A DNA stretch of 64,000 nt, taken from NCBI GenBank assembly GCA_965248925.1, contig CBDFLE010000006.1, forward strand, positions 4,960,001 to 5,024,000. The letters are read 5' to 3'. A program made the position numbers and the translations under genes. The stretch is from Candidatus Multivoradales bacterium (lineage in GTDB: Bacteria; Acidobacteriota; Thermoanaerobaculia; Multivoradales; J023). Positions 22,426 to 60,655 of this stretch are shown piece by piece (within the stretch, counting starts at the first letter, position 1; each line of letters opens with the position of its first letter). The notes below the pieces were generated by a model. The model saw only the letters and a list, made by a program, of their open reading frames with translations, did no database searches and was not told the DNA's origin.

Positions 22426-22427
22426 CT

Positions 22428-43502: not shown

Positions 43503-43504
43503 AA

Positions 43505-44176: not shown

Positions 44177-44194
44177 GAAGCACCTCGCCCTCGT

Positions 44195-45914: not shown

Positions 45915-45968
45915 GTGAAAGCGGGGCACGCAGGAAAACGAACGTCAGTAGAAGGGAAAAGAGGAAAA

Positions 45969-46244
45969 GTGGCCGGCTATATATTCGAGTGGGACGCGGT
46001 AAAGGCCGCGCGGAACAGGCGGAAGCACCGGGTCACGTTCGATGAGGCCACGACGGTCTTCGCCGATCCGCTGAGCATGCTTCGGGCCGATCCCGACCAT
46101 TCTCACACCGAGCAACGGTTCATTGTACTTGGTATGTCAAGTCAGCACCGGTTGCTTGTGGTAGCCTTCCTTGAACGATCTCCTCGCACCCGCCTGATTA
46201 CCGCAAGGCGGGCGACGCGGAAGGAGCGGCGGCAGTATGAATAG
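45969..46244 (+). CDS. brnT: BrnT family toxin
   Basis: FEWD..K..N.RKH.V.F.EA..VF.DP..HS..E.RF..G..RLITAR.AT..E. Confidence 0.93.
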   Translation: MAGYIFEWDAVKAARNRRKHRVTFDEATTVFADPLSMLRADPDHSHTEQRFIVLGMSSQHRLLVVAFLERSPRTRLITARRATRKERRQYE

Positions 46245-46669: not shown

Positions 46670-48922
46670 TCACAAAATCTCCACCACCACCGCCCCCCGC
46701 ACCTTCGCCATACAAGCCAGGCGGCAGGAGCCGGCTTCTAGATCGCAGATGTCTTCCAGAGTCTCGGCTTCGCCGTCGGTGGCTTCGGCGGCCAGGTTTT
46801 CTTGGCCGCTGAGGATGCGGATGGGGTCGCTGCCGCAGATGCCGGCGTGGCATTCGGCGGAGATCTTGATGCCGTTGGCTTCGGCGATCTCGCAGATGGT
46901 CTGGCCGGGCTCGGCGGCGCAAATTTGGCCGCTGGGTTGGAAAGTGACCGAGGGGCCATCGCTGGTGACGGCTGGCGGAGTTGCTGGCAGGGGCTGGATG
47001 GCGGTGACGTGCTTGGCCGGGCCTTGCTCGCTATCGTGGACGGTGTCGCGATTGGTGGTGAAAAGGAACTTCTGGCTGCCGGCGCGGAAGCGGTCACCCT
47101 CTTGCAGGTGGACGGCGTTGCGCACTCGCAGGAAGGTGCCGTTGACGCTTTTCAGGTCTTTGGCCAGCAGCTGGCCGCCGCTGACGGTCAACGCTAGCTG
47201 GCGGCGGGAGAGGGTGCCGTCGTCGGCGTCGAGCACGAAGTCGGGGGCGCGGCGGCCGAGCACGCTGGTGCCGGGGCGTAGGATGTGTTGGCCGAGTTCG
47301 CGGCCGCTGGAGTCGTAGTGGGTGAAGGCCCAGCTGTCGCCACTGCCGGCGAAGAGCAAGAATTGCCGGCCGGCGCGTAGCAGGTCACCGTTCGACAGGG
47401 TGATCTTGCGCTGGCTCGGCAGGTAGAGGAAGAGGCCGCTGTCGGAACCGTCGTCGCGCAGCATGCAGCCTTCTTCGGTGTGAGTGACCGAGGCGTGGCG
47501 CGGAGCTAGCAGGGTGTCGGTGGGGAAGTCTAGATCGCAGCCTGAGCGACCGATGGTGCAAACGTCGTGCGGCTCGATGCCGTGTTCGGATCCTTCGACG
47601 CCGCCGGGCAGGAGGCGGATCAGCCAGGCGACGGCGCTGCTCGGCCGGCGGTCGCGCTCGAGGCTGGCCGGCGGCGGGCCTGACGATGCCTCGGGGGCGA
47701 GGGAGGGCAGGGCGGCGAGGTCGTATTCGGGCTCTTCGGCGTCTTCTAGCGTGACTTCGATGTCGGTTTTGCCAGCCAGGCGTTGGGCCACCACTTCGGC
47801 GACGAAGACGCCGTCGCGCAGCGCCGATTTGATGTTGCCACGGTGTTTGACCTCGCGGAAATCAGCCGGGTCGGCGGCGAAATCCTCGGTTTCGAAATAT
47901 GCTTGGCTGAGCATGTCACCAATCAGATAGACGTTGGCTTGCTCGCTCTCGAGCAGGCGGTTGACCACCATGCGCCGGCGGTTGCGGGGGCCGCCCTGCG
48001 CCATGTGGATGCCGAGTTCGGCGAGCAGCTTTTCCGGGATGTCTTCGCCGATGCAAGCGATGCAGCTCTCTTTGGCAAGTTCGAGATGGACGCTCTCCGC
48101 CGGCCGATCGGCCATCTGGCGTCGGTCGATACGAATCGACAAATAGTCGCGGCGATCTTCGCCGGTGACCACCGCGGTGGGTTCGCTGCGCGGGTAGTAG
48201 CGGATGTTGCCGTTGCCGATGTAAGCCTCGAAGAAAACCTCGGCCAATGCCTTCGAGACTCGTGGCATGCGGTCGCCGCGGTAGCTCCAATAGACCGAGG
48301 TCTTGTCGTCGGCGGCGAATTTGGCTTGGGAGATGGCGATGACCGATTCGGCGGCTGAAGTACCGCCGCCGATCACGCAGGCGGGCTGGCCAACAAAGCG
48401 CTGGGGATCGTCGAGGCGGAAGGCGATGCCATCGGTGTTGCCCGGAATGTCGAAGCGGCGGGGCACGCCGCGGCCGATGGCCAACACCAGGTGGCGGGTC
48501 AACAGGGAGACCTCGCGGCGCTCGCCGTGGTGCCAGGCGATGACTCGCAGCAGACCGTCGTCGCGGCGCTCGAGGCCGGTGAGTTCGAGGCCGATCTGGC
48601 GCGGAACTTGGTGGCGCTGGTAGGAGGCTTTCCACTCGACGCACATATCGTCTTTGTCGATCGGCGCAAAACACAGGCAGTCGATCAGTTCACCCGCCTT
48701 GGGGAAGCACATGGCGTCGCCACCACCGAAACTGGGCAGGATCAGCTTGTCTTTGGAGTAATCGCGGATACGCTTCATCAAGTCGTCGAATTCGATCACC
48801 ATCGCGTCGAGGCCGAGTTCCTTGGCGCGGAAGGCGGCGGCGGTGCCTCCAGGGCCGCCACCGACGATCAGCAGATCGTGTACCGCTGGCTGCGGTGGGT
48901 CGCTGTTCGGGGTCTCAGTCAT
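46670..48922 (-). CDS. FAD/NAD(P)H oxidoreductase (TrxB-like fold, no CxxC) fused to two FHA domains and a [2Fe-2S] ferredoxin
   Basis: IVGGGPGG, VIGGGTSAAE, WSYRG, VYLIGD; TIGR..PRHA and LGRR..LSRRQ..SVNGTF; CHAGICGSD...CRLAC. Confidence 0.88.
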   Translation of the reverse strand: MTETPNSDPPQPAVHDLLIVGGGPGGTAAAFRAKELGLDAMVIEFDDLMKRIRDYSKDKLILPSFGGGDAMCFPKAGELIDCLCFAPIDKDDMCVEWKASYQRHQVPRQIGLELTGLERRDDGLLRVIAWHHGERREVSLLTRHLVLAIGRGVPRRFDIPGNTDGIAFRLDDPQRFVGQPACVIGGGTSAAESVIAISQAKFAADDKTSVYWSYRGDRMPRVSKALAEVFFEAYIGNGNIRYYPRSEPTAVVTGEDRRDYLSIRIDRRQMADRPAESVHLELAKESCIACIGEDIPEKLLAELGIHMAQGGPRNRRRMVVNRLLESEQANVYLIGDMLSQAYFETEDFAADPADFREVKHRGNIKSALRDGVFVAEVVAQRLAGKTDIEVTLEDAEEPEYDLAALPSLAPEASSGPPPASLERDRRPSSAVAWLIRLLPGGVEGSEHGIEPHDVCTIGRSGCDLDFPTDTLLAPRHASVTHTEEGCMLRDDGSDSGLFLYLPSQRKITLSNGDLLRAGRQFLLFAGSGDSWAFTHYDSSGRELGQHILRPGTSVLGRRAPDFVLDADDGTLSRRQLALTVSGGQLLAKDLKSVNGTFLRVRNAVHLQEGDRFRAGSQKFLFTTNRDTVHDSEQGPAKHVTAIQPLPATPPAVTSDGPSVTFQPSGQICAAEPGQTICEIAEANGIKISAECHAGICGSDPIRILSGQENLAAEATDGEAETLEDICDLEAGSCRLACMAKVRGAVVVEIL

Positions 48923-49938
48923 CGCTCACTGCCTCCGCTACTGGCTGGGTCTTTCTCGGCTAGGTCCTTCTCGGTCGGATCGGCCTCGATCCAAATCAGC
49001 CGAGCTTCGAGTTCGCCGAAGTGGATCTCGCTGCCGACCTCTACCACGGTGGGTTGGTCGATCGCCTGGCCGGCGACAAAAGTCTTGTTCTGACTTCCCA
49101 GGTCGCTCACCGTCACCTGCTCGCCCTGGCGGTGGAGGACGGCGTGGCGGCGCGATAGGGAAGGACTGTCGAGCTGGATCTGTGCCTTACGGCCGCGGCC
49201 GAGCAGATTGTCGCCCGGCTCCAAGATGAACCTCTGGCGGCTGCTGTCAGCGGTTTGAATCTCCAGAGCGGGGACCCGTGTCGGGGGTTCTTCGGCAGGG
49301 GAGTCGCTGCTGGCGAGGCCCTCGCTGAACAGCTCGTCGAGCCCTTTCTTGGGTTTGGCAAAGGGCGAAGTCGGCGGGTCGGTCGGCCCTGTGGATGGCT
49401 CTGTGGTCGGTTCTGTGGATGGCGCCGTGGCCGGGGCGCCTAGGTTCTGTGGTATCTGGAAGGGGAGCTGTTCAATGCGGGTGCCTTCCTGGTCAACCGG
49501 CTTCTTGGGCAGCGGGATCATGCTGGGAACTTGCAGCGGCTGCTGCTCGATCTGGGTGACCCCGAGAGGGTCGCTGGGGGCGGTGCCCGCAGTGGGCTCG
49601 ACCACGTCGGCTCGGGCGCTCGCCGGGGCGCTGGTGGGTTGCAGGTCTTGGAAGACGAAATCGAGTTCCTTGGCCAGGGTGATGACATGCAAGTGACCGA
49701 GGCGTTCGGCCCTTTGCACCCGCAGACCGTCGAGTTCGGTGCCGTTCAGGCTGTCGAGGTCTTCGAGGCGGTAGCAGCCGTTGTCGCTGTCCCACTTCAG
49801 GCGCGCGTGGTGGTTCGAAATCAGGCCGCTGTCGAGCGCTATTTCGTTGTCCGCGGAGCGGCCAATACGAGCTTCGCTGGCGATTTCGAACGAGGCTCCG
49901 GCGTGTTCACCCACTTTGCAGAACAGCCTGGCACGCAT
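48919..49938 (-). CDS. Double-FHA-domain protein with Pro/Thr-rich linker
   Basis: IGRS..ISNHHA..DLDSLNGT and LGRG..LSRRHA..DLGSQNKT. Confidence 0.9.
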   Translation of the reverse strand: MRARLFCKVGEHAGASFEIASEARIGRSADNEIALDSGLISNHHARLKWDSDNGCYRLEDLDSLNGTELDGLRVQRAERLGHLHVITLAKELDFVFQDLQPTSAPASARADVVEPTAGTAPSDPLGVTQIEQQPLQVPSMIPLPKKPVDQEGTRIEQLPFQIPQNLGAPATAPSTEPTTEPSTGPTDPPTSPFAKPKKGLDELFSEGLASSDSPAEEPPTRVPALEIQTADSSRQRFILEPGDNLLGRGRKAQIQLDSPSLSRRHAVLHRQGEQVTVSDLGSQNKTFVAGQAIDQPTVVEVGSEIHFGELEARLIWIEADPTEKDLAEKDPASSGGSER

Positions 49939-49967
49939 GATTCTTGGGCCCCTCTCAGATTTTCGTT

Positions 49968-51542
49968 TCAGTCCAGATAGAGCAGCAGGTCGGCGTGGTG
50001 GCTCTTGTCCGGGTGGAAACTGTGGCAAGTGATGCAGCTATCAGACGCCAGCCGCGGATTGTGACACTGCTGACAGGTCTCGATCGGTGGCAGGTTGTGC
50101 ACCGATGCCAGATCGCCGCTGGTGTCGACCTCGCTGTCGGCCAAAGCAGCGGCGATGGGAATCTGCGAGTGGCAGTCCAGGCAGCGCAATTCGAGGATGT
50201 GGGCGCCGTGGTTGAATTCGGCGCGGCGCAGGGTCTGCTGGTTCTTTTGTACCCGCACCAGAGTGCCGTCCCGCAGCTGGTGGCACTGCTGGCAGGGCTG
50301 GCTGATCTGGCCGATCAATTCTTCGATCTCCGCGGCTCGCTCGGCGCTGACCTCGTCGCGCCGCGCGCGGCTTTCGGCGAAGAGGAACTGACTCTCGTCG
50401 AGGGGGGTGAAGGGATCGCGCAAGGCTTGTCGCAAACTGCGCAGCTGGGCGTCGATCTGGCTCAGTTCTTGTTGGATCAGCGGTTCCGGGCGACCCCGCA
50501 GGACGAGGGCGAGCAGCTCCAGATTGTCGATCGCTTCCTGATAGAGCTCGCCGAGTTGGTGCGGTGCCACGTCGGCGGTGGTGGTCAGCAGGTCGGCGAG
50601 TTCGGAGCTTTGCCACAGTTGGTCGCGCAAGTGGCGCAGGTTGGTCAGGATCCATGGGTCGCGGTGGTGGATGACTTTCTTGATCACCCGCGAGCCCACC
50701 TCTTGGAATTCGGCCGCGCTGGTGTAGTCGGCCCAGCGACTGGCCGGGTCGTGGCGCTGGCGGATCATCGCCAAGGTTTCGACTCCTGGAGGCTGATCTT
50801 CGGCGCGGCCGATCGGCAGGCGAGGGGTCCGTACCGCGGTATCCAGATGGCAAGCATCGCAGCTGCGATCGAAGTCGATCGGTGCGAAGTTCTTACCGTC
50901 GGCGAGGGGCTGGTGGCAAGCCAGACAGCTGCGTTCGACATCGATCCATCCCTGGCGTTCGCTGATCTCTCGCACATGGCGGATATGGCCAAAGCTCAGT
51001 CCAGCGCCGTCGGGGATGTTGTCGGCGATGACATCGAATTGGGGGTGCTGGTCGCCGAACGAGCCGAATTGGTGGCAGTCGAGGCAGCGCGAGTCGGCCA
51101 CCTGAGTGATGTTGGCGTCGCGACCCCGATGCTCGGGATGGCAAGCGGCGCAGGGGCTTTCACCGTCGCGACTCTCGAGACGCTGGAAGTCGTTTGAACG
51201 GTAGAGGTAGTGAGCCGAGAAAGTGTAGATGCCGAGCTCGTCGCCGGTTTTTTCGTGGCAGCTGGAACATGCCTGGTTGGTGACCCGTGAATCCTGGTGG
51301 CAGGCGGCGCAGTCGTTTTCCAACACCGCATGATTCGACGATAGGGGGCCACTGGAGACGAATTTTGCCTGACCCAAGAAGAAGTCGGTTGCCGCCCACG
51401 CGAGCAGCGCGACCGCCAGCAGAGCACCCAGCCATAGCAATTTGGATGTCGAGGCCAGTCGCGGGTAGCGAGTGGCCACCGGCAGCCGGGCCTTGCCGAA
51501 AGTGCCTTTGCGCCCGCGTTGATTGTTGGAATCACTCATCAC
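49968..51542 (-). CDS. Membrane-anchored decaheme cytochrome c (c3/c7-like)
   Basis: Ten CxxCH motifs; N-terminal TM; SSGPLSSNH, FGHIRH and FNHGAH distal-His motifs; helical insertion between hemes 6 and 7. Confidence 0.92.
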   Translation of the reverse strand: MMSDSNNQRGRKGTFGKARLPVATRYPRLASTSKLLWLGALLAVALLAWAATDFFLGQAKFVSSGPLSSNHAVLENDCAACHQDSRVTNQACSSCHEKTGDELGIYTFSAHYLYRSNDFQRLESRDGESPCAACHPEHRGRDANITQVADSRCLDCHQFGSFGDQHPQFDVIADNIPDGAGLSFGHIRHVREISERQGWIDVERSCLACHQPLADGKNFAPIDFDRSCDACHLDTAVRTPRLPIGRAEDQPPGVETLAMIRQRHDPASRWADYTSAAEFQEVGSRVIKKVIHHRDPWILTNLRHLRDQLWQSSELADLLTTTADVAPHQLGELYQEAIDNLELLALVLRGRPEPLIQQELSQIDAQLRSLRQALRDPFTPLDESQFLFAESRARRDEVSAERAAEIEELIGQISQPCQQCHQLRDGTLVRVQKNQQTLRRAEFNHGAHILELRCLDCHSQIPIAAALADSEVDTSGDLASVHNLPPIETCQQCHNPRLASDSCITCHSFHPDKSHHADLLLYLD

Positions 51543-51573
51543 TCATCTTTCGCTCATCAGTAGAGCACTACCC

Positions 51574-52425
51574 TCAGTAGAGCACCACCATCGCAATGTG
51601 CAGAACGATCAACGCCAACACCGCCAGGGAAATCGGCACATGCAGGTAGAGCCAGACACGCAGCACTGGTTGCAGAGTGTAGTGGGCGTCGATCTCGAGT
51701 TTAGCGCGGTAGAGGTGTTCGAGTTCTGCCAGGCGTTGACGCTCTTCACCGGCCAGGAAGCGCGCCAGGTATTCGAACTCCTTGAGCTTGTTGTTGAGAC
51801 CGCCGGTGATGTCGACAAAGTAGGCCAGCCGGCGCCGCGGCTGGCTCAGGGTGGCGGCGACCTGGTGTTCGTAGAGCCGCCGCACCGGCTCGCTAGCCGC
51901 CACCGCCAGAGCCTCGGCCTGGCGGCGAATATCTTCGGTGAGTTCGGGAATGCGCTGGTAGTTGATCTCGGTCCACAGGCCAGAGGACAGCACTTTGGGA
52001 ATCCACCGCTGCAGCACGACGCCTACCAGTCCGCTGAGAACGGTCCACAAGCTCAGCCCCCACAGCCAGAGATTGAGAGCGCCGGTGGGCAGACGGAAAG
52101 CGCTGTGCATCAGCAACAGCAGGGCGAAGAGCAGACCGCCGTAAAGGTGAAAATCCAGCCAAGCACGGGCGCTGCCCAGCCGCCGTCGCGACACCCAGCG
52201 CATCAGCCGCCGGCGAGCGCCATAGAGCGCCACCCCGAGGCAGAGCAGGGCAGCGGCGATACCCCAGCCGATACCCCAGGCATTGCCCGGACGCACTTCA
52301 CCGAAGCCAAGCTGCCACAGGTAACTCAGCACGCAGAGCAAGGAGACCACGCCGAAGGTGAGTAGCGAATTCCGCGATCCGCCCAAGCCGTAGCGCTGGC
52401 CAAGTCGCCGCGGAACTTTGTTCAT
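51574..52425 (-). CDS. Polytopic membrane protein with His-bearing helices (possible heme b)
   Basis: WLDFHLYGG..LLMHS and WLYLHVP..VLHI; about five TM helices; ATG 52425 overlaps the upstream stop. Confidence 0.85.
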   Translation of the reverse strand: MNKVPRRLGQRYGLGGSRNSLLTFGVVSLLCVLSYLWQLGFGEVRPGNAWGIGWGIAAALLCLGVALYGARRRLMRWVSRRRLGSARAWLDFHLYGGLLFALLLLMHSAFRLPTGALNLWLWGLSLWTVLSGLVGVVLQRWIPKVLSSGLWTEINYQRIPELTEDIRRQAEALAVAASEPVRRLYEHQVAATLSQPRRRLAYFVDITGGLNNKLKEFEYLARFLAGEERQRLAELEHLYRAKLEIDAHYTLQPVLRVWLYLHVPISLAVLALIVLHIAMVVLY

Positions 52426-54062
52426 CGTTCCTCCCGGGCGAGGTCGAGCAAATTGGTGACCTCTTCCAGAGAGCCTACTCGGGTGGCGCAGCCTTGCGGA
52501 CAGTTGCTGACGCAGGCCGGCTCGTGACCGGTGTCGTGGCAGAGGTCGCATTTGCTGGCCACTCGCCGGGGCTGACCGCGCAGGGCTTGGGGCAGCATGT
52601 CCCCAGGCCAGGTCTCGCCGGTGTCGTGCATGAGGATGGCGTCGTAGGGGCAATTGCCGCCACAGGTGCCGCAGCCGATGCACAGCAGGTCGTCGATCTC
52701 GATCACTGCCTCGATGCCGGCGCGATGAATGGCGCCGGTCGGACAGCCAATCAGGCAAACTGGGTCGCGGCAGTGGTAGCAGGAGCGGGCGATCAAGATG
52801 TCGCCGTGTTTGGCCCCCTCGCGGACGAAACGGGCGCGGCCGCCGTGAGTATCGGCACAGGCTCGCACACAGTCGTCGCAGCGGGTGCAGGTTTCGAGGT
52901 CGATGGCGAGCATGCTGGTGCCTTGCACTAGGCCGCTGCTGAGCGCCGCGTTGGTGAATTTCGCGTGGCCGATGTCGCGGCGACTGTAGCCGGCCTCTTT
53001 GATCCGCTGGATAGCGCTGCGCCACAGCTCTTGCTCGATCTTGGGTGAGCTGCCGACCAAGTCGGCAAACACCCGCGCCGGTATCTCCACTAACTCGGCA
53101 TGCTCCACCGCGGTGGCGGTGACCTGCCAGCCGTCCAGATCTTCGACCAGCAGCTCGACTTCGCCCAGAGTCATGCCCTTGGACAGATAGGACACCGCCA
53201 GATCACCCTCGCCGAAGCGTTGCGACAGCTTGACGAAGCCGGAGCGCATCAGGTAGAGCGCCGCCACCGGCTCGCCCTGGCGGACGATGGGCTCTTCGGG
53301 CTCGCAGGAGCGCAACGCGACAACTTCTTTGATAGCGCCCAAGAAGAGATCCGAGCAATGGCTGAACAGCGGAGTGCTCTTCAGCTGCGAGAGTAAGGCG
53401 CGGTCGCGATAGAGCGTGTCGATACGCTCTTTCAAAGCTGGCGACCTGCGCTTCATCGCCCGCAGCGCGGGGAGTCTGATCTGTACCAACTGACAGCGGC
53501 CAGTGGCGCGGGCGGTGACCGACTGCGGCCAGCCCGAGAGGGCGCCAATCTCGCCGAAAAGCTCGCCCTTGCCAAGCCGGGCGCCACTGCCGCGAGGCAG
53601 GTTGAAGTCCATGGTGGCGAGAAAGGTAATCTCGCCGTTCGCCGCTGGCCGAGGCAAGAAGCCACTGGCAGGGGCCAGCAGGTTGCCAGTGGGCGGCGCG
53701 GCGGGCTCGATGACGGTGCGCGTCAAGTCGAAGACCGGTTGGGAGACGGTGTGGTCGTCGATTCCGCTCAAAAAGAGATCGACAGTACCATCAGCGACAA
53801 AGAAGGCGAGGTCGAGATAGCTGCCTTCCTCGAACAGCACCGCCCCTGGCTCCCACACCGCCACCGAGATGTCGGGACTGATCTTCTCCAGAAAGCGGTC
53901 GTCATAGTCGGCGAAGATCTCGAACGCCCGCAACTCTTCGGCCTTCAGCCGGTCGGAGATCGACTCAATGCCCCCTTGGTCGCCATACGAGGTCCAGCGG
54001 TCCCGATGTTGTTCCAGCCGCCGTTGCCTGGTGACCGTGTTCGGATCTGGGAGCTGACTCAT
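52422..54062 (-). CDS. Tandem cNMP-binding-like domains fused to a DmsB/NrfC-type 4x[4Fe-4S] domain
   Basis: LFEEG..FGEIGAL and IVRQGE..LGEVEL; CTRCDDCVRAC, CYHCRDPVCLIGCP, CIGCGTCGGNCP, CDLC..PACVSNCP. Confidence 0.92.
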   Translation of the reverse strand: MSQLPDPNTVTRQRRLEQHRDRWTSYGDQGGIESISDRLKAEELRAFEIFADYDDRFLEKISPDISVAVWEPGAVLFEEGSYLDLAFFVADGTVDLFLSGIDDHTVSQPVFDLTRTVIEPAAPPTGNLLAPASGFLPRPAANGEITFLATMDFNLPRGSGARLGKGELFGEIGALSGWPQSVTARATGRCQLVQIRLPALRAMKRRSPALKERIDTLYRDRALLSQLKSTPLFSHCSDLFLGAIKEVVALRSCEPEEPIVRQGEPVAALYLMRSGFVKLSQRFGEGDLAVSYLSKGMTLGEVELLVEDLDGWQVTATAVEHAELVEIPARVFADLVGSSPKIEQELWRSAIQRIKEAGYSRRDIGHAKFTNAALSSGLVQGTSMLAIDLETCTRCDDCVRACADTHGGRARFVREGAKHGDILIARSCYHCRDPVCLIGCPTGAIHRAGIEAVIEIDDLLCIGCGTCGGNCPYDAILMHDTGETWPGDMLPQALRGQPRRVASKCDLCHDTGHEPACVSNCPQGCATRVGSLEEVTNLLDLAREER

Positions 54063-56710
54063 GGGGTCTCTCCTTGGGAGCGAATCGCGGCGTAAAGCAG
54101 TTCGAGCCGACGTTTGAGCTGCACCAGAGCTTGCTCGATCGGCGTCGAGGAGTCGAGGGCGGGGAAGGGGGGCAGCTCGATGCTGCCCAAGCGTCGACTG
54201 ATCGGCTCGGCCCCGCCACCGTCGGCTGGGGGTGATGTTGGCCGCGGCTTGGGGATCTCCAAGATATTGCTGGGCTTTCGAGTGTTGAGTGTCCCTCGCC
54301 GCCGGCGGCCACCGCGCTTCTCCAGGGCGCGGTCAAAGGCCGCCACCAGTTCAACGGTCGGGGTCAGCGGCGCTTGCCAGTGGCGTACTGAGGCCATGCC
54401 CCCAGCGTAGTCGAAATCGGCGCCGGTCGGGTGGCCGGCCGAGACCAGGCGCTGTTCGGTGATGTAGTGGCAGCTGTTGCAGCGGGTGGCGCGAACCGGC
54501 AGATCCTTGAGCCTCACCATGCCGATCTCGAGGGCCTTCAAGTAGCCAGGGCGGCGCGTGCCGAGGGCCTTATCACCTTCTTGATGTGGTTCCAGATAGT
54601 CCCCCGCTGGACCGTGGCAACTCTCACAACCGACCCCGGCTTGCGCTTCGCGGCGCTCCTTGCCGGTGACCACTGAGCCGTGGCAATCCATGCAGATCTG
54701 ATTGCCGCGGGTGATCTCGCCGCTCGCCAAGCCGAATAAGCGAGCGATGCGAAGAGCCTTGGGGTCGCCGCTGAGGAGACCGTCAGCGGAGCTGTAGTGG
54801 CGATCGTCAAACCACCAGGCATTCTCCTCCTTGTGGCAACCGCTGCAAGCGCCAGGGCCTCGGCTGGCGTGGGGTGAGAGTGGATGAACGCGAGTGTTCT
54901 TGGCTCCCACCACCTTGGCTTGCACAGCTCTTTCGCTAGTCTGCTCACTGGTCGGTGGAGTCGCCGTGGCCGATTCGTCAGCTGGTTGGGTCGCTGGATC
55001 CTCGCTGGTGGCAGGGGCCGGCTCAGCCAGGGGGTTCAACAGCGTTGGATCGCGGGCTGGCACCGGTCCCCGCTCGGCCAGGGCGCTGCTGAAGGCGGCT
55101 TGCAGAACCGTCGAGGAGGCCAACGGGTGCTGCCAGTGGCGCACTCGCGCCATGCCGCCGACAAAGTCGAAATCGTTGCCGTCGGGATGGCCGGTGGCGA
55201 TCAGCTTGCGGTCGGTGATGTAGTGACAGCTGGTGCAGGTCTGGGCACGGCGTGCGTGATCCTTGAGTTCGGTCATGCCCAGGCCGAGGGCGGCGATGTA
55301 GCCCGGACGCTTCAGGCCGAGGGCCTTGTCGCCCTCGCGATGGGCTTCGATGTAGCCGCCGGCCGGGCCATGGCAGCTCTCACAGCTGGCGCCGTCCTGG
55401 ACTTCGCGGGCCAGTTTGGCCGAAGCCGCGGTGCCATGGCAGCCCATGCAGGCCGATGTGCCGCGGGCCATCTCCTCCGCGCTCAAACCATAGAGCCTGG
55501 CGATCTCCAAGTTGCGCGGCTCTCGATCGAGAAAGGGCTCGATCGAAGCAGCGTGCGGATCCTCGAGCCACCAAACGTTCTGCTCAGCATGGCAGCCGCT
55601 GCAGGCGGCCTGGCCCAGGGTCGGAAAGTCGTGGCTGACCGGGCGTGGTCCGATGCTTGGAGTGGGGGCGGTGGTAGCGCTCCGAGTGCCGCCAGAGCCG
55701 TTTTCGGCGCGGGCCACCGGCGCGGCGGTACCGTCGAGCAGTGGATCGAGGGCAGCGAGCTGTTGGCCGTCGTGGCGGTCGAGCAGGCGGCGGCCGGCCT
55801 GGTCGATGCGGTCGGCGGCGGCCAGCAGCGCGGTGCGGTTGTCGAGTCCGACGGTCAGGCCGCGTACCGCCTTCAGCATCTCATCGACTTCGCTGAGTTC
55901 GACGCTGGTCGCAATCGCCCGCAGCTCGGCGGCGGCATTGCGCTGGCGGCGGGTCATCGCTTTCAGGTAGATCCCCGGCCGGCTGGCGGCGGCCACCCCG
56001 CGCAAGCTGTACTCGAGGTCCAGGGTGCGGCCGACCACATACATCAGCCGTCGCCGCGCCGCGCCGCGCAGGGCGTTGTCGCTGCCGTCGCCGTTGAGAA
56101 AGCTGGTCAGGAAGTTGTGGCGGATGTCGCCCTGGGTCCACTCGACCAGCTCAAAACCGCCGCTGCCGCTGGTATGACCGCCAATATTGACCAGGCCCTC
56201 GTAGGGCACCGTGTGGCAAGCGAAACAAGTGGCCGCCACGTCGTAGAGGTCCGAGGGGCGCCGCATGCCAGCTTGACGGCTCTCAAGGATGCGCTGGGAG
56301 CGGTGCTCAGCGGTTTCGCTGCGGTGGTCAAGACCCTTGCCACCATAGTCGTTGTGCAGCTCGATCCACGACTTGCCGGCGCCGTGGCAGGACTCGCAGG
56401 ACACTCCCGATGCGGCCCGCACCTCATCCCCTTTCAGGGTCGGAGTGTAATGGCAATTCAGGCATAGGCTGTCGCGTTTGATCAGCTTGAAGCCCATTTT
56501 TTCGGCGATCTTGGTGGCGCTCTCTTTGCGGTGCAGAGTCTTGAAACCGGTGGCGTGGGGGGTTCGATTCCACACCTCGTATTCGGCGACGTGGCATTCG
56601 CCGCAAGCCTCGACTTGGGCGAAGTCCTGCGGCGGCTGGCGGGAGTAGGCTTCGGAACTCGGCTGAGCCAGGGCGCGGTGGGCGAGACCGCAGCCCAGCG
56701 CTAAGGCCAA
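54059..56710 (-). CDS. Exported dodecaheme cytochrome c made of three c554-like tetraheme modules
   Basis: Twelve CxxCH in three groups of four, each with CESCHG; signal peptide ending ALA. The start may be CTG 56755, overlapping the upstream stop. Confidence 0.92.
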   Translation of the reverse strand: MALALGCGLAHRALAQPSSEAYSRQPPQDFAQVEACGECHVAEYEVWNRTPHATGFKTLHRKESATKIAEKMGFKLIKRDSLCLNCHYTPTLKGDEVRAASGVSCESCHGAGKSWIELHNDYGGKGLDHRSETAEHRSQRILESRQAGMRRPSDLYDVAATCFACHTVPYEGLVNIGGHTSGSGGFELVEWTQGDIRHNFLTSFLNGDGSDNALRGAARRRLMYVVGRTLDLEYSLRGVAAASRPGIYLKAMTRRQRNAAAELRAIATSVELSEVDEMLKAVRGLTVGLDNRTALLAAADRIDQAGRRLLDRHDGQQLAALDPLLDGTAAPVARAENGSGGTRSATTAPTPSIGPRPVSHDFPTLGQAACSGCHAEQNVWWLEDPHAASIEPFLDREPRNLEIARLYGLSAEEMARGTSACMGCHGTAASAKLAREVQDGASCESCHGPAGGYIEAHREGDKALGLKRPGYIAALGLGMTELKDHARRAQTCTSCHYITDRKLIATGHPDGNDFDFVGGMARVRHWQHPLASSTVLQAAFSSALAERGPVPARDPTLLNPLAEPAPATSEDPATQPADESATATPPTSEQTSERAVQAKVVGAKNTRVHPLSPHASRGPGACSGCHKEENAWWFDDRHYSSADGLLSGDPKALRIARLFGLASGEITRGNQICMDCHGSVVTGKERREAQAGVGCESCHGPAGDYLEPHQEGDKALGTRRPGYLKALEIGMVRLKDLPVRATRCNSCHYITEQRLVSAGHPTGADFDYAGGMASVRHWQAPLTPTVELVAAFDRALEKRGGRRRRGTLNTRKPSNILEIPKPRPTSPPADGGGAEPISRRLGSIELPPFPALDSSTPIEQALVQLKRRLELLYAAIRSQGETP

Positions 56711-56751
56711 GCACCACAGAGCACGGGTCGGCGAAGCCAGGGACTCGTCGG

Positions 56752-58323
56752 TCAGAATTTCACCACCAACTCAAGGCGGCCGCCGAAGGGTGTTTGGTCG
56801 CCGCCGGCCCGCTGGCGTTGACTGATAAACGCGTCAGTGACCACCAGCACTCGACGACCGAAGGCGGCTTGGTAGCGCGCGGTCAGACCGTAGGAGTCCT
56901 CGACCGCGTCTTCCAGTCCCAGCCGAGCGGCAACTTCGACCACCAGCTGCCGTCGGCTGTGGCCGAGAAACTTCTGGTAGCCGATAGCTCCGCCGACCAC
57001 ATCTTGCGCCAGATTGCTCAGTGGAGCGCCGTAGCTACCCAGGCCGACCGCCGCGAAGTTGATGCCGACGCGGCCCAAAGGGCCACCGGCCGCGGGGCCG
57101 CGAGCTGCCGAGGAAAAACGGTCGAAGGCCACGAAGTTGTTGATGTAGAAAAGATCCGAAGTGTAGGCCGGGGTCCACGAAAGTTCACTCATCAACAGAG
57201 TGCCATTGCCGCTGAATGGGGTTTCTTCATCGATGGCGAACGAACTCAGCAGGCGGAACGAAGAGCTGGTCTTGCCGAAGCGTTGCACCGCCGAGATTCC
57301 GGCCACTGCCAGGTCGCCCGCCAGGCTGTCGGAGCGCACGTAGGCGAGGTCGACATCGAAGGTCGAGCGTGCGGTGTCGGTCGAGGTGAACAGGGCGAAG
57401 AGTTGGGCGTCCTTGTCTTCTACATTGCCACCTGCCACAGAGCCACGGTGAAGATTGTCCCAACCGTAGAAGAAGGTGGCGCGGAAGTTGGAAGTGTTGG
57501 CTGGCAGCAGGGTGTTGCGGGTGAAGCCGATACCGTCGATGGTGTCGGCGATCAACAATCCTTCCTGAAAAGATATCGGCTGGCGGCCGATCGAGAAGCC
57601 TACATCCAGCGCACCAAAATCCTCACGGTCGAGGTTGGGGAAGATCTCGCCGATGTCACCTTCGAAGTAAAGACTGCTGATTTCGGCATTGAGTTCGCTC
57701 TCGAATTCTCCGTCGAGATTGGCGTCGGGATGCTCGAAGAAGTAGCTGGTAAAGCGCCCGTCCTCGTCGAGAGCCCGCAAGCCCACCACCAGACGTTCGC
57801 TGCCCGACAGTTGCAGGTTGAAGAAGAGGTCGAGCCGATTGGCCCACTCAGTCACCCTCCCCTCGACTCCTTGCAAGTCCGGTTCGAAGGTCTGAATGGC
57901 GCTGCGAAAGGTGCCGAAGGCGAGCAGCGAGGGCTGCCAGACGGCACCGGTGGGCAGGCGAAAACCCGGTTTCAGAGTGCCTGTGCCGAGGAATGGCTCG
58001 CCGAGTTCCAGCAGTGGTTTCGGGCGCTGCGGGAAGCCTTCGAGCTGTAAGGGAATCTCCTCGTCGGAAAAGCGACTCGAATGTCCCCCTTTGCCGTGCT
58101 CCTCCCTGTCTTCTCCGCTATGTTCTTTCTTGGCCTGCTCCGCGTCGCCTTGATCATCCGCGGTCGACTCGCCGCTGTGCGGATCAGTGGAGGAGGGAGT
58201 GGGGTCGTTGGCGGCGTTGGTGGGAGCGGCGAGCAGCAGCAGAATCACCAGAGCAGCATCGATCCACAGCCAGCTCGCTGGCTGGCGACCGCGGGCGGCG
58301 AGAGAGTTGCCGCGATGCTTCAT
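56752..58323 (-). CDS. Putative outer-membrane beta-barrel (porin-like) protein
   Basis: Signal peptide, alternating amphipathic strands, IGRQ motif, C-terminal RLELVVKF with terminal Phe; ATG overlaps the upstream stop. Confidence 0.75.
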   Translation of the reverse strand: MKHRGNSLAARGRQPASWLWIDAALVILLLLAAPTNAANDPTPSSTDPHSGESTADDQGDAEQAKKEHSGEDREEHGKGGHSSRFSDEEIPLQLEGFPQRPKPLLELGEPFLGTGTLKPGFRLPTGAVWQPSLLAFGTFRSAIQTFEPDLQGVEGRVTEWANRLDLFFNLQLSGSERLVVGLRALDEDGRFTSYFFEHPDANLDGEFESELNAEISSLYFEGDIGEIFPNLDREDFGALDVGFSIGRQPISFQEGLLIADTIDGIGFTRNTLLPANTSNFRATFFYGWDNLHRGSVAGGNVEDKDAQLFALFTSTDTARSTFDVDLAYVRSDSLAGDLAVAGISAVQRFGKTSSSFRLLSSFAIDEETPFSGNGTLLMSELSWTPAYTSDLFYINNFVAFDRFSSAARGPAAGGPLGRVGINFAAVGLGSYGAPLSNLAQDVVGGAIGYQKFLGHSRRQLVVEVAARLGLEDAVEDSYGLTARYQAAFGRRVLVVTDAFISQRQRAGGDQTPFGGRLELVVKF

Positions 58324-60185
58324 CTTGTGCTCGCTGGCGCGCTGCCGCTTGTGGGTTGATGGTTGGTATTCGCTACCGGAATCTCCAGATCGGTTTCCCA
58401 CAGCACCTGATGCCCTTCTACCACCCGATCGGCCACTTCGCGGGGGCTCAGGAAGTAGTCAAAACCGACAATCTTGATCTCGTTCACCAGGTTGACCGGG
58501 ATCATTCCCGCAATCAGCTGGATGCGCGCCTTATAAGGTGCCTTGCCGGTCAGCTGCTCGGGCCGGATTCGGTACTTGCCGACCCGCTTGCCGCCAGGTG
58601 AAATGCCTCTCTTATGCTTGCGCACCCCAGCCGGTCGGCCGGTGAGAATGGTGGAAGAAGTAGAAGGGCGCAAGAAGGGCAGAGGGTCGGGCGAGTAATT
58701 CAGTGCCAATACTTGCTCGCGCTCGCCGCCGCGAGCCATGCGGGTCATGAATTTGGCTTGCAGACTCAGCAAGTCGCGATCCAGCGGTAGTTCGCCATTG
58801 TGAACATACAGCGAATGTAGGTCGCGAATGTCGCCGTTGGGGTCGAGGTCGCCAGAGCGGTAAACCACCTGGCCGTCGCTGTCGGCTACCGTGACCCGCA
58901 CAAACACCAGTCGTTCGGCGTCGAAGCCGGTTGGCACACTGTGGCCGTTGGTGGCGTTGAGCACCTCGACCTCGAACACCACTCCCCGTTTGGAGTCGGC
59001 CCGGCGGACGGAAATATCGCCGAATTGATAACCGTTTTGCAGGATCTTGAGCCGGTCGCGATCGGCTTCGGCGAGTAGCTCCAGATTGTCGTCGAGAATG
59101 TCGCGCGCATCATAGCGATCGTCGATCGCCGACCAGCGCGGGGGAAATTCGAAGTCCTCAGGCTTGCTGTCTTCGAACTCATCCGTACCCCAGCCGTCGC
59201 GCCACTCGAAGCTCAACCACTCGCGAATGGTGGCTAGCTCCGAAGCCTTGATGTTGTGCGGGAAGATACCGGGGTGGATTACCGAGTAGTCGGGGCCGAT
59301 GAACATGTGGTTGGTGCGTTTGCGCGGCGCGGTCGTCCGCGAGCCGACCAGCGCCGCCGGGGCTTCGGCATAGCCCGAATCGACCCCCGGCACAGTGCTC
59401 ATGTGGCAATCCTGGCAGGACACCCCTTCCTTCGCCGCCGGCGAATGTTTGAATTCGCTGAAGGCTTCCTCAAGGCGAAAACCGTTGACCAGGTTGACAT
59501 CGTGGCAGGTGCCGCAAAAACCTGAAGCGCTGAGTTGAAAGAACTTCTGCGCCTCGGTGTGGATCGCCCGCCCGGCCTTGCCGCGGACCGTGTTGACCCG
59601 GAACTCACTGCTGTTGATCACCCGCTCCAGTTCGTCATTGCCGCTGGGGCCGTACACCGGTTCGAAGAGATCTCCTTCGACAATCGCCAGCCGGCCGCTG
59701 AGCTTGCCGTAGGCCTTGTTGACCCGGTGGCAGACGATACAAGTGACCCCCTCGCGCGATGTTGGATGGCGGTCCATATTGCTCATGAACTCAGGTTCGC
59801 CCAGGTTCATCCCCACCGGCGTGTGGCAGCGGATGCAGAAGTCGCCGTTGGTGCCGTTGGTGATCTTCAGCACCGTGCCGTGAAAAGCGTTGAAAACCGG
59901 GCTCATCTGCGAGTAGGCGTGGGGCGAGACCGACCACTCACGGTAGTGATCAGGGTGGCAGGTGCCGCAAGTCGTAGCGGCTGGAAAGCGGTTCTCCAAG
60001 AACAACAGCTCGTGCTCCTGGTCGGTCGTCGTGGGGGTGTCGGCTTCACTGCTGTCCTGGGCCGCGACCCCTAGCACGAAGAGTGATGGCAGAATTAGCA
60101 ACAGCCATAGCCACCCCTCTCGCTGCTGCCCTGGGCCGCTCCTTGGGTGTCTTCCGTCGCCGCTCCGGATCGCCTGCTCAGTCAT
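58320..60185 (-). CDS. Exported pentaheme cytochrome c (c554-like N-domain plus beta-rich C-domain)
   Basis: CGTCH, CIRCH, CIVCH, CGTCH, CQDCH; W..SPHA, EGVTC, NH.F.G and GHSVPTG motifs; signal peptide. Confidence 0.92.
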   Translation of the reverse strand: MTEQAIRSGDGRHPRSGPGQQREGWLWLLLILPSLFVLGVAAQDSSEADTPTTTDQEHELLFLENRFPAATTCGTCHPDHYREWSVSPHAYSQMSPVFNAFHGTVLKITNGTNGDFCIRCHTPVGMNLGEPEFMSNMDRHPTSREGVTCIVCHRVNKAYGKLSGRLAIVEGDLFEPVYGPSGNDELERVINSSEFRVNTVRGKAGRAIHTEAQKFFQLSASGFCGTCHDVNLVNGFRLEEAFSEFKHSPAAKEGVSCQDCHMSTVPGVDSGYAEAPAALVGSRTTAPRKRTNHMFIGPDYSVIHPGIFPHNIKASELATIREWLSFEWRDGWGTDEFEDSKPEDFEFPPRWSAIDDRYDARDILDDNLELLAEADRDRLKILQNGYQFGDISVRRADSKRGVVFEVEVLNATNGHSVPTGFDAERLVFVRVTVADSDGQVVYRSGDLDPNGDIRDLHSLYVHNGELPLDRDLLSLQAKFMTRMARGGEREQVLALNYSPDPLPFLRPSTSSTILTGRPAGVRKHKRGISPGGKRVGKYRIRPEQLTGKAPYKARIQLIAGMIPVNLVNEIKIVGFDYFLSPREVADRVVEGHQVLWETDLEIPVANTNHQPTSGSAPASTR

Positions 60186-60367
60186 ACCAACACCGCCTTC
60201 CAGTGGCGCCTTCCAGTAGCGCCTCATATGCGATCAGCTGCATATCTAGTTGCTTATGTGGCTGGATGATAACGGCTTCCGCCCTCGTTGGCCAGATTGC
60301 GGAAGGACCATTTAGGCTCTATCGACGGCGAGTTGGTAGCTGCCCATATTTGTGCGAAGATGGTTTT

Positions 60368-60655
60368 ATGCGAACCACCATCGATTTGCCGAGTCGCTTG
60401 CTGCGCCAGGCCAAGGCTCGGGCGGCTCTGGATGGCACGACTCTCAAGCAGCTGGTGACGCGGTGGGTGGAGCAGGGCTTGAAGCGGGCAACGGATCCCG
60501 GCCTGGCCGCGCCCCAGCGCCAGCGGAGCGAGCTGCCGGTCGCCCGGTCGGCCACCGGCAGGCTACTGCCCAACCTGACCAATGCGGACCTCCACCAGAT
60601 TCTCACCGACGAAGAGATCGCCCGTAGTGAGACCACTGAGATCTCCGGTGGGTGA
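60368..60655 (+). CDS. Ribbon-helix-helix antitoxin (VapB-like)
   Basis: MRTTIDLP..LLRQAKARAA..G.TLK.LV..GL. Confidence 0.85.
   Translation: MRTTIDLPSRLLRQAKARAALDGTTLKQLVTRWVEQGLKRATDPGLAAPQRQRSELPVARSATGRLLPNLTNADLHQILTDEEIARSETTEISGG

Follow-up and report, generated by a model that had tools for sequence, protein, structure and literature searches.

An acidobacterial operon of the PCC4/Ptd porin–cytochrome type with an FHA-bearing flavoprotein module: a possible path for electrons from NAD(P)H to the outer membrane

We analysed 64,000 nucleotides of a Candidatus Multivoradales genome (phylum Acidobacteriota; contig CBDFLE010000006.1, positions 4,960,001 to 5,024,000), a stretch referred to below as the window and used for all coordinates. 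A first-pass annotation of its letters had singled out eight genes as a candidate new system, a signal-gated electron conduit across the cell envelope. Comparison with other genomes indicates that these genes, named G1 to G8 in order of transcription (Table 1), form a real and widely conserved operon. The system itself is not new: judged by its architecture and motifs, the core is the cluster that earlier genome-based work called "PCC4" (He et al. 2017, PMC5566968) and the ptdABCDEFG operon (2023-24; bioRxiv 10.1101/2023.11.21.568154), and the claim of novelty is withdrawn to that extent. Apparently undescribed are the module formed by an FHA-bearing, thioredoxin-reductase-like flavoprotein and a kinase, the cyclic nucleotide (cNMP) pockets that in this branch have lost their Arg, the tetrahaem cytochrome tripled to 12 haems, the hairpin-in-pore junction predicted between PtdA and PtdB, and a set of flavoprotein/iron–sulfur (Fe-S) fusions.

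We put at about an even chance the reading that the operon moves electrons outwards, under a phosphorylation switch in this branch. Cytoplasmic NAD(P)H would reduce the flavin adenine dinucleotide (FAD) of G8, from which electrons would pass by way of the G8 2Fe-2S centre to four [4Fe-4S] clusters in G4. Docked on the cytoplasmic face of G5, G4 would hand them to two b haems (held by H93/H262 and H107/H276) that take them across the inner membrane. The anchored decahaem cytochrome G6 would accept them and pass them to the periplasmic 12-haem cytochrome G3 and on to the pentahaem cytochrome G1, which would be held under the 18-strand channel G2 with a haem-free hairpin inserted in the pore. An outside oxidant would then meet the last haems at the G1–G2 junction, an arrangement distinct from an MtrAB-type wire. 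FHA domains in G7 and G8 would read Ser/Thr phosphorylation by a neighbouring kinase and so control flux or assembly. The direction of flow, the acceptor, the logic of regulation and the bypass of quinones are what we infer in this scheme, the last of these being plausible.

An eight-gene operon conserved across phyla

Eight co-oriented open reading frames (ORFs) occupy 46670-60227, all on the minus strand. They hold 27 CXXCH haem sites (5 in G1, 12 in G3 and 10 in G6), and one further CXXCH in G4 (CDLCH, residue 505) is part of an Fe-S motif and not a haem site. ATGA overlaps were present at the G1/G2, G3/G4, G4/G5 and G7/G8 junctions, and an in-frame CTG of G3 overlaps the TGA of G2, making a fifth overlap (CTGA) possible from a start that is unproven. 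Searches of Pfam and NCBIfam matched cytochrome families to G1, G3 and G6, gave no family for G2 or G5, and found no molybdopterin or other catalytic family among the eight proteins. On gene number and orientation, haem count, named domains, overlaps (the hedged fifth being a fair description of G2/G3) and the lack of a catalytic subunit, the first-pass annotation was accurate.

A full-length G4 orthologue (58-66% identity) was found in 21 of 40 related genomes searched, and 9 of the 12 regions fetched around G4 orthologues contained all eight genes in the same order (tblastn). At L023 only G2 went unmatched by tblastn, a 537-residue ORF standing in its place, and L025 was without G1-G2. Beyond these relatives, at least 545 of 579 pattern-matched stretches from a one-genome-per-species collection carried a relative of G4, and 79 loci of that collection were kept for locus comparison. 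The record titles of loci with G4 relatives name Acidobacteriota (Thermoanaerobaculia, Holophagae, Vicinamibacterales), Bacteroidota including Rhodothermales, Ignavibacteria/Chlorobi, Gemmatimonadota, Nitrospirota, Nitrospinae, KSB1, Calditrichia, Zixibacteria, Myxococcota and Planctomycetota, the last including a cultured strain, Aeoliella sp. SH292 (L108).

Genes were counted in close loci, meaning foreign loci whose G4 reaches 49% identity or more and whose flank on the side in question exceeds 6.5 kb. Among these, G1 was held by 16/29, G2 by 17/29, G3 by 28/29, G5 and G6 by 34/37 each, G7 by 31/37 and G8 by 29/37. G1 and G2 were present or absent together in 28 of the 29. Where both flanks were available (27 loci), all eight genes were found in 13, with several phyla represented, and G3-G8 were complete in 19, so the neighbourhood search does recover the set as annotated. 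Distant loci (G4 below 45% identity) all held G5 and G6 (14/14 each), with G7 in 6/14 and G8 in 0/14. Since the genes are syntenic in many genomes, the arrangement lies far beyond chance, and the counts therefore divide it into three layers: a near-universal core (a short c554-type cytochrome, G4, G5 and G6), a cytoplasmic module that varies, and an optional outer module (G1-G2). Direct observations on these genomes cover gene content, conservation, cofactor motifs and gene fusions.

Several variant loci were also recorded. L029 (the same as L035) has G3-G5 only, followed by an 1805-residue Pkinase + AAA_16 protein (2074-7491, minus strand) instead of G6-G8, the N-terminal 590 residues of which have no assigned family. 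Some 3-4 kb of extra DNA separates G5 from G6 at L074 (KSB1) and G6 from G7 at L087 (Calditrichia). Distant acidobacterial and planctomycete variants have a 790-residue protein with three FHA domains after the decahaem gene (L092, 13125-15494, plus strand), and proteins of 560-620 residues with HbpS-like (haem-degrading-like) domains stand inside the cluster at L092 (6914-8764) and L099 (13550-15226).

The core corresponds to PCC4 and Ptd

PCC4 was described as comprising a porin, an Fe-S gene, three periplasmic cytochromes (4, 5 and 10 haems) and redox genes upstream of the tetrahaem gene, together with a conserved five-helix inner-membrane protein whose helices 3 and 5 bear WX3HX13H and whose helix 4 bears SGXXG (PMC5566968). 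The preprint that defined ptdABCDEFG (bioRxiv 10.1101/2023.11.21.568154) describes PtdE as a cNMP-domain protein with 4Fe-4S clusters, PtdF as a ferric-reductase-like membrane protein and PtdG as a decahaem cytochrome. G5 meets the PCC4 motif description exactly (W89/H93/H107, G132/G135, W258/H262/H276), and it is this fit, with the matching architectures, that identifies G1-G6 as PtdA, B, D, E, F and G. Three loci with the published architecture, L105 and L108 (Planctomycetota) and L107 (Nitrospinae), have a G4 of 31-33% identity and share G5 and G6 with the window.

The likeness extends to the pentahaem cytochrome with an adjoining porin gene, the c554-type tetrahaem unit, the decahaem cytochrome, an NAD(P)H flavoprotein within the cluster, and a cNMP + 4Fe-4S gene directly upstream of the five-helix membrane protein; the first and last of these pairs are joined here by ATGA overlaps (G1/G2 and G4/G5). 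The flavoprotein differs. Ptd has an FNR-like PtdC upstream of the tetrahaem gene, whereas no such gene stands between G2 and G3, and the window instead has, at the 3' end, a thioredoxin-reductase-like flavoprotein with two FHA domains and a 2Fe-2S domain. A PtdC-type flavoprotein is present in L105, L108 and L107. Further departures are the extra double-FHA gene G7, the tripling of the tetrahaem unit to 12 haems, the cNMP pockets without Arg, and the acidobacterial host.

FHA domains go unmentioned in the accessible text of both sources (PMC5566968; bioRxiv 10.1101/2023.11.21.568154), the supplementary tables of the preprint being a place where such variants might be listed, and "Acidobacteria" goes unmentioned in the accessible text of PMC5566968. 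Literature searches for an FHA-bearing multihaem cluster returned nothing beyond the ptd preprint, found no described arrangement with an FHA domain embedded in or beside an electron-transfer flavoprotein, and met the name ptdABCDEFG in that preprint only. A preprint on extracellular electron transfer (EET) in peat (10.64898/2026.05.27.727921) treats other clusters, and the part of it that was available mentions neither FHA nor cyclic nucleotides nor 4Fe-4S.

A pentahaem cytochrome predicted to plug a solute porin

Of the eight proteins, G1 shows the highest conservation: its identity is 60-79% in most of the loci where it occurs and 36-39% in three distant loci. It matched the pentahaem cytochrome c552 of Thermochromatium tepidum (PDB 5ze8, E 8.2e-12) over three stretches that take in both the cap and the beta-domain and include residues 396-452, and is the longer protein (621 against 435 residues). 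All five CXXCH motifs fall within residues 73-261 (numbered from the start at 60185), no Cys is found outside them, and seven non-motif His are invariant for the five haems, a count that speaks neither for nor against an open haem coordination site. The NCBIfam model NF040886 scored 45.9 bits (cut-off 250). The pentahaem cytochrome (PHC) family groups c552 of T. tepidum with Geobacter ExtKL and cable-bacteria cytochromes, and the extKL cluster includes an outer-membrane gene, extI (PMC11976967). G1 resembles this family in its five-haem helical cap and in an Ig-like beta-sandwich with an extended hairpin.

Two enzymatic assignments were rejected. An NrfA-like activity had in its favour a Pfam stretch of 22 residues only, at 15.8 bits against a cut-off of 24.1. 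ExtKL of G. sulfurreducens is the polysulfide reductase MccSep, with a Cys-ligated haem 2 and selenocysteine (bioRxiv 10.1101/2025.11.18.688581); such an enzyme needs the haem-2 Cys ligand and a Sec or Cys in a beta-domain loop, and G1 has neither.

For G2, none of 981 homologues carries a Pfam family or a name. Its AlphaFold2 model has a mean predicted local distance difference test (pLDDT) of 77.5, mostly above 90 past residue 125, and a predicted template modelling score (pTM) of 0.72, with strands spanning residues 128-522. Superposed on 18-strand channels with VIA-align, the model gave Z scores of 25-28.5 at a root-mean-square deviation (rmsd) of 2.7-3.3 Å over 317-340 residues, the best matches being OccK7 (Z 28.5, rmsd 2.8, 324 aligned), OpdQ (28.0), MOMP (27.8), OprD (27.0) and AlgE (~25); Foldseek gave E values down to 1.6e-11. 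MtrB was absent from the best 50 matches listed by Foldseek and VIA. On this modelling G2 is an 18-strand outer-membrane porin of the OprD/AlgE, small-solute class, which upholds the earlier call of a beta-barrel.

The N-terminal ~100 residues of G2 (about 30-125) form a disordered stretch in which His, Glu, Lys and Asp abound, and they could bind metal or act as a tether. The segment just before the barrel (~83-125) is conserved, with the consensus ...HSSRLSDE.IPLQLEGFP.RPKPLLELGEPFLGTGTL, and touches G1 in the complex model.

The complex was predicted from G2 residues 90-523 and G1 residues 60-621 with custom alignments of 51 and 25 rows. It scored 0.86 (runs at 0.83, 0.86 and 0.88), where the best of three controls reached 0.01; this mark was attained by 116 of 157 solved complexes and by 2 of 215 mismatched pairs, a calibration that holds only roughly here because custom alignments were used. 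At least 83% of contacts were common to the runs, and partner pLDDT was at least 85. G1 is thereby predicted to bind G2, in agreement with the barrel–cytochrome pairing of the first-pass annotation. The predicted interface comprises, on G1, an unbroken run from 482 to 534 together with 571-581 and parts of the haem cap, and on G2, alternate residues along many strands together with the N-terminal segment 90-128. The run 482-534 contains no CXXCH, and the hairpin is among the most conserved stretches of G1 (consensus NYSPDPLPFLRPSTSSTILTGRP...). In this model a haem-free extended hairpin of the G1 beta-domain seems to fill the G2 pore. The haem cap would sit at the periplasmic mouth, because the N-terminus of an outer-membrane barrel is, as a general rule, periplasmic. 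We know of no solved look-alike of the complex, and its score is unlikely to arise from a memorised structure. With no haem site in the pore hairpin, it would be a substrate or product, rather than a haem wire, that crosses the outer membrane.

These features bear directly on whether the operon encodes a true trans-envelope conduit, as the first-pass annotation had it in full. In such a conduit electrons would leave through G1-G2 to insoluble Fe(III) or Mn(IV) minerals or to electrodes in the manner of MtrCAB or Pcc. A porin-cytochrome role has been proposed in both published descriptions (PMC5566968; bioRxiv 10.1101/2023.11.21.568154), and it would account for the adjacency and co-inheritance of the two genes, the strength of the predicted complex and the length of the 27-site haem chain. 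Nevertheless, we consider such a conduit unlikely: the best listed structural matches of G2 are solute channels, the stretch predicted to occupy the pore carries none of the five haem motifs, the cluster encodes no extracellular cytochrome, and the models for MtrC/MtrF (PF22113, 24.9-28.9 bits against 30; TIGR03507, 15.9 against 209.3) and DmsE (TIGR03508, 32.5 bits for G1 and 25.8 for G3 against 192.2) all stayed under their cut-offs. The operon does resemble MtrCAB (Shewanella) and Pcc/Ext (Geobacter) in setting a multihaem cytochrome gene beside a barrel gene and in having a periplasmic haem chain. In those systems MtrB forms a much wider barrel around a decahaem cytochrome and has a surface cytochrome as partner, whereas here the barrel is modelled in the 18-strand class, the element predicted to be inserted lacks a haem site, and no surface cytochrome gene accompanies them.

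The periplasmic haem chain

G3 matched Cytochrome_C554 in three stretches (Pfam, 116.1 bits), corresponding to three tetrahaem modules. Identity between modules 2 and 3 is 56% over 179 residues, and no direct DNA repeat of at least 30 nucleotides was found in the gene; the duplication is therefore old, and a recent duplication or assembly artefact as the source of the 12-haem state was rejected. Relatives of G3 have 7-10 CXXCH motifs (mostly 8) in loci with G1-G2 and mostly 3-4 in loci without them, which fits a cytochrome that would bridge towards the outer module and is longer when that module is present.

Ten CXXCH motifs were kept in 54 of the 57 G6 relatives listed, two others having 9 and a truncated fragment having 4. 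Ten non-motif His are conserved at 0.98-1.00 across 45 sequences, so that every one of the ten haems could have bis-His ligation. By eye, the N-terminus forms one hydrophobic helix. The cluster contains no cytochrome gene, extracellular or other, beyond those of G1, G3 and G6.

The proposed inner-membrane step and cytoplasmic input

A search of 1.84 billion representatives returned 1700 homologues of G5 (E <= 0.001). Across 54 homologues of 23-53% identity, residues H93, H107, H262, H276, G55, G132 and G135 are invariant and W89 and W258 nearly so, making up two WX3HX13H motifs (H93-x13-H107 and H262-x13-H276) and an SGXXG motif. In the AlphaFold model (pLDDT 93.5, pTM 0.84) helices span 18-40, 49-73, 86-107 and 116-149, followed by a helical insert (156-221) and a long last helix (226-282); the HX13H pairs sit on helices 3 and 5 with one His of each pair near each face. 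Paired HX13H helices are the classic hold for two b haems across a membrane, and on motifs and model together G5 is a probable dihaem b cytochrome. Foldseek found no solved relative in the PDB at E <= 0.001. The best match of a wide VIA search was a chemoreceptor sensor domain at Z 9.6, in the generic range for helical bundles, and comparison with dihaem proteins gave Z 7.0-8.4, including CybB (5oc0, Z 8.4, rmsd 3.3, 128 aligned) and a designed two-haem bundle (8.3); such scores neither favour nor disfavour a ferric-reductase-domain or cytochrome b fold. The nearest clusters of a language-model atlas are named 'ferric reductase like transmembrane component' (0.98), which is a lead only.

G4 matched cNMP_binding in two stretches (Pfam, 89.5 bits) and 4Fe-4S dicluster families. 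Sixteen of its Cys form four ferredoxin-type groups without a change in 25 sequences, and because of this four [4Fe-4S] clusters are a fair reading. The closest PDB entries to the Fe-S part are HycB4 (E 2.2e-16) and HycB3 (5.9e-15) of the hydrogen-dependent CO2 reductase, followed by an NrfC/PsrB-type subunit (1.3e-11). The protein has no export signal and would be cytoplasmic. Three fused proteins, P0242 (828 residues), P0276 (771) and P0356 (856), consist of cNMP and Fer4 domains followed by a G5 domain, which would place the Fe-S domain on the N-terminal, cytoplasmic side of the membrane protein.

A second, paralogous G4-like family was also seen, as ORFs of ~810-850 residues that align with G4 residues ~141-532 at 33-37% identity, in relatives G006:C490, G012:C481, G020:C16, G026:C1 and G025:C24. 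These are probably of the cNMP–Fe-S–membrane fusion type, so that some genomes would hold two systems.

The combination of G4 and G5 recalls NarGHI and FdnGHI, in which a DmsB/NrfC/HycB-type 16-Cys ferredoxin domain is set on a dihaem membrane protein. NarH, the Fe-S subunit there, is cytoplasmic. The operon differs from these enzymes in having no molybdopterin subunit and in fusing cNMP-fold domains to the Fe-S subunit, and G5 has no sequence relation to NarI or FdnI and a weak fold score only.

G8 matched Pyr_redox_2 (62.7 bits), FHA in two stretches (57.4 bits) and Fer2 (25.7 bits against a cut-off of 21) in Pfam, and carries the motifs GGGPGG and GGGTSAAE for FAD and NAD(P)H. Other lineages have a different protein in this position: L105 and L108 encode an FNR-type NAD_binding_1 + Fer2 protein in place of G8, with FAD_binding_6 as well in L108, and at L107 a single 868-residue ORF joins Fer2, FAD_binding_6, NAD_binding_1, cNMP_binding and 4Fe-4S domains. 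Two unrelated NAD(P)H flavoproteins with 2Fe-2S have thus been recruited, and one has been fused to PtdE; we take this as the strongest evidence that pyridine nucleotide forms one end of the path. The annotated input from an NAD(P)H flavoprotein and Fe-S protein, joined to a two-haem-b membrane protein and a haem chain, accordingly gains from both the HX13H pairs and the natural fusions.

Direction of flow

By standard bioenergetics, outward flow from NAD(P)H would run downhill in potential with the aid of the membrane potential, whereas inward flow to NAD(P)+ would be uphill on both counts. A similar design is found in NOX, FRE and STEAP proteins and in MsrQ with flavin reductase, where electrons from NAD(P)H pass outwards through a flavin and two b haems on two HX13H helices. 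By this analogy we think that the inner-membrane part of the operon works like the ferric-reductase-domain proteins; it differs from them in its separate flavoprotein, the interposed four-cluster Fe-S protein and the c-haem chain as acceptor. An outward path would conserve no energy, which would explain both its many control domains and its presence in many aerobes. An assimilatory or protective role, with Fe(III) chelates or another oxidant entering through G2, seems as likely as respiration.

Two other sources or sinks for the electrons of G5 were weighed. In one, G5 would oxidise quinol as CymA, ImcH or CbcL do and feed G6, G3 and G1, with G4, G7 and G8 acting as a redox or phosphorylation brake. 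A membrane b cytochrome with Fe-S and multihaem proteins is the make-up of Geobacter Cbc-type complexes, and the cNMP fold and FHA domains do give G4, G7 and G8 a regulatory look. A brake, however, leaves it hard to explain why two unrelated NAD(P)H flavoproteins with 2Fe-2S should have been recruited in different lineages unless electrons enter there, and the 16 invariant Cys of G4 describe a wire-like chain of four clusters; we hold a quinol-fed branch to be rather unlikely.

Quite unlikely, too, is the inward flow of the PCC4 model, by which Fe(II), Mn(II) or another outside or periplasmic donor would feed G2/G1, G3, G6 and G5 in turn and so reach quinone. On such a scheme the cytoplasmic Fe-S protein and flavoprotein would serve regulation or reverse flow to NAD(P)+. 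Inward flow draws on the occurrence of PCC4 in Fe(II)-oxidising Zetaproteobacteria, Hyphomicrobium and water-filter bacteria and on the exchange of electrons with quinones by HX13H dihaem proteins such as cytochrome b (both PMC5566968), and FdnI and CybB are among the weak fold matches of G5. Yet the cluster is widespread in lineages not known for Fe(II) oxidation (Thermoanaerobaculia, Bacteroidota, Ignavibacteria, Gemmatimonadota), the chainwise fusion of flavoprotein, Fe-S protein and membrane protein in some genomes makes the cytoplasmic parts a natural end of the path, and electrons bound for NAD(P)+ would have to move against both redox and membrane potential.

Probable control by phosphorylation rather than by cyclic nucleotide

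The first-pass annotation had proposed control by a small ligand together with Thr phosphorylation. The two cNMP domains of G4 read WPQSVTA and GWQVTATA where protein kinase A has P-R-A-A-T, with Gln in the position of the phosphate-binding Arg in both, and Q180 is invariant in 25 close relatives. Because these pockets have lost the Arg, gating by cyclic nucleotide is unlikely in this clade, and that half of the proposal is not supported here. Over 69 relatives the domain-1 column contains Q in 50, R in 10, V in 6, H in 2 and I in 1. The ten Arg-type loci (L098-L100 and L102-L108) have a canonical PR[ST]A, several of them in both domains; none has a match to G7 or G8, and a class III nucleotide cyclase gene adjoins the cluster in three (L105, L106, L108).

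The phosphorylation half fares better, by context. G7 matched FHA in two stretches (Pfam, 116.8 bits). In its second FHA domain R248, S262 and H265 are invariant and N284 is conserved at 0.97 (30 sequences), and the first keeps S41, H44 and N65, its Arg not being conserved; the second FHA domain of G8 keeps GR, SR and NG. The linker of G7 is unconserved except for T153 (context EGTRIEQ), present in 28 of 30 sequences and a candidate phospho-acceptor. A canonical Arg/Ser/His/Asn set and a conserved Thr in a flexible segment are likenesses to GarA/OdhI and FhaB/FipA, FHA regulators of actinobacteria that are under the control of Ser/Thr kinases, and the PDB matches of G8 include GarA and OdhI. 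The differences are that the NCBIfam scores lie below their cut-offs (FhaB_Rv0019c 103.8 bits against 125, OdhI 68.5 against 200) and that FHA stands here in or beside an electron-transfer flavoprotein.

In 17 of 33 rows, equal to 16 of 31 distinct contigs since two pairs of rows share a contig, a Ser/Thr kinase gene was found no more than 3 kb from the G8 end; the genomes are related and so not independent. These kinases are of two types, the first convergent and 52-58% identical to a kinase encoded in the window, the second co-directional, receiver-domain-linked and 33-38% identical. The kinase domain of the window is 53% identical to the G8-adjacent kinase of L021 and 45% to that of L019. 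At 82 Pkinase matches in 7.98 Mb, or about one per 97 kb, chance adjacency would be a few per cent. The window kinase is a probable accessory of the operon, and in this branch Ser/Thr phosphorylation, read by FHA, probably controls flux or assembly, so far as conserved residues and gene neighbourhood can tell. The orthologous kinases next to G8 elsewhere have other C-terminal parts, for example TonB_C in L019, where the window protein has Peptidase_C14.

That the haem chain should serve only to report the redox state of the envelope to FHA, kinase and cNMP-fold proteins, with no net flux, is very improbable despite the dense signalling domains and the kinases or cyclases adjoining the cluster, as 23 to 27 haems, four Fe-S clusters, a porin and a complete flavoprotein would exceed the needs of a sensor, the decahaem count is as constant as in a wire, and Pfam found no DNA-binding or histidine-kinase output domain fused to any of the eight proteins.

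Weight of the evidence and implications

Several observations weigh against outward, phosphorylation-switched flow. On direction, the published PCC4 model runs the other way, from an outside donor to the quinone pool (PMC5566968); the function of ptd is called "completely unknown" in bioRxiv 10.1101/2023.11.21.568154; and the outward direction was argued from thermodynamics only. A quinone site in G5 is possible and would link the path to quinones. The ferric-reductase family of Pfam, PF01794, gave no match to G5 at E <= 0.01, and the VIA scores for STEAP4 (Z 7.7), cytochrome b561 (7.5), FdnI (7.4) and STEAP1 (7.4) are in the generic range. In the 2Fe-2S domain of G8 only C691, C696 and C737 are conserved in at least 90% of 29 sequences, C733 being conserved in 60-90%, and from these sequences it is the weakest cofactor call of the system. 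At the outer membrane, the G1–G2 prediction is one of protein chains without haems, and its geometry was read from the list of interface residues and not from coordinates. On control, of 37 close loci 6 lack G7 and 8 lack G8; in G8 the first FHA domain is degenerate, without the canonical Ser and Asn; no kinase was found beside G8 in 16 of 33 rows; the window kinase lies ~4.7 kb from G8 behind inserted AbiEii, IS256-type transposase and BrnT genes; and the complementary pattern, with FHA genes missing beside Arg-bearing pockets and present beside Arg-less ones, comes down to a single change on the G4 tree, one independent pair, and carries no statistical weight.

A broader proposal can be built on outward flow, and we advance it tentatively, as one that may well prove wrong. 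Ptd/PCC4 would be a bacterial counterpart of NOX and FRE, independent of quinones and spending cytoplasmic NAD(P)H on the reduction of an incoming substrate. The outer membrane would hold a new type of junction, in which a haem-free hairpin plugs a small solute channel so that the substrate comes to the haems. Because such a path would drain reducing power and membrane potential it would need a switch, and this switch would have been exchanged in evolution, with cyclic nucleotide in one branch (Arg-bearing pockets with an adjoining cyclase) and FHA-read Ser/Thr phosphorylation in the branch of the window.

If electrons do pass from NAD(P)H to a porin-docked cytochrome, the spread of G4 relatives (at least 545 stretches, across Acidobacteriota, Bacteroidota, Ignavibacteria, Gemmatimonadota, Nitrospirota, Planctomycetota and others) would make this a common quinone-bypassing route into the Gram-negative envelope, with a bearing on iron acquisition or respiration, on redox balance, and on how metagenomes are read for 'EET potential'. 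The hairpin-in-pore junction would offer a testable structural hypothesis for PtdA-PtdB and perhaps for ExtI-ExtKL of Geobacter, and the apparent exchange of a cNMP for an FHA/kinase switch would be a rare natural experiment on the gating of electron flow.

Genomic surroundings

Coordinates of the operon and of neighbouring features are given in Table 1. Searches of sequencing runs located this DNA in 4 runs of one study, with no RNA run found. The operon is flanked on both sides by patches of mobile or selfish genes. On the kinase side, the Transposase_mut domain of the IS256-type element is split between two overlapping ORFs (profile positions 21-188 and 205-369), the result, probably, of a frameshift or of programmed frameshifting. 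Toxin-type genes around the operon are all on the plus strand, and beyond them a Transposase_29 gene continues past the edge of the window.

Table 1. Positions of the operon genes and neighbouring features in the window
Feature	Position	Strand	Description
G1	58320-60185 (alternative ATG start 60227)	-	PtdA-like pentahaem cytochrome; N-terminal signal sequence, five-haem cap, C-terminal beta-sandwich
G2	56752-58323	-	PtdB-like outer-membrane beta-barrel, 18 predicted strands; C-terminus ...VVKF
G3	54059-56710	-	PtdD-like periplasmic 12-haem cytochrome; possible CTG start 56755 overlapping the G2 stop
G4	52422-54062	-	PtdE; two cNMP-fold domains and a DmsB/HycB-type domain for a probable four [4Fe-4S] clusters
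G5	51574-52425	-	PtdF/PCC4 inner-membrane protein; five predicted transmembrane helices, cytoplasmic helical insert
G6	49968-51542	-	PtdG; decahaem cytochrome, single N-terminal membrane anchor
G7	48919-49938	-	two FHA domains with a Pro/Thr/Ser-rich linker between
G8	46670-48922	-	thioredoxin-reductase-like FAD/NAD(P)H flavoprotein, two FHA domains, C-terminal 2Fe-2S ferredoxin-like domain
Ser/Thr kinase with caspase-like domain	39989-41929	-	Pkinase 153 bits, Peptidase_C14 76.8 bits
Mobile/selfish genes between G8 and kinase	42094-46244		AbiEii toxin, two-piece IS256-type transposase, BrnT toxin (Pfam)
AbiEii nucleotidyltransferase	42584-43156	+	toxin-type gene
IS256-type Transposase_mut	44341-45611	+	two overlapping ORFs
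BrnT ribonuclease	45915-46244	+	toxin-type gene
PIN-domain gene	60582-61085	+	toxin-type gene
Transposase_29 gene	61708-63999		with helix-turn-helix domains
PaaA/PaaC-family and aldehyde dehydrogenase-MaoC genes	35874-38955	-	the latter PaaZ-like

The PaaA/PaaC-family and PaaZ-like genes suggest a phenylacetate catabolic cluster adjoining the operon region. The G+C content is 0.54-0.57 at 10001-14000 and 22001-24000, against ~0.63 elsewhere in the window, and these segments may be foreign DNA.

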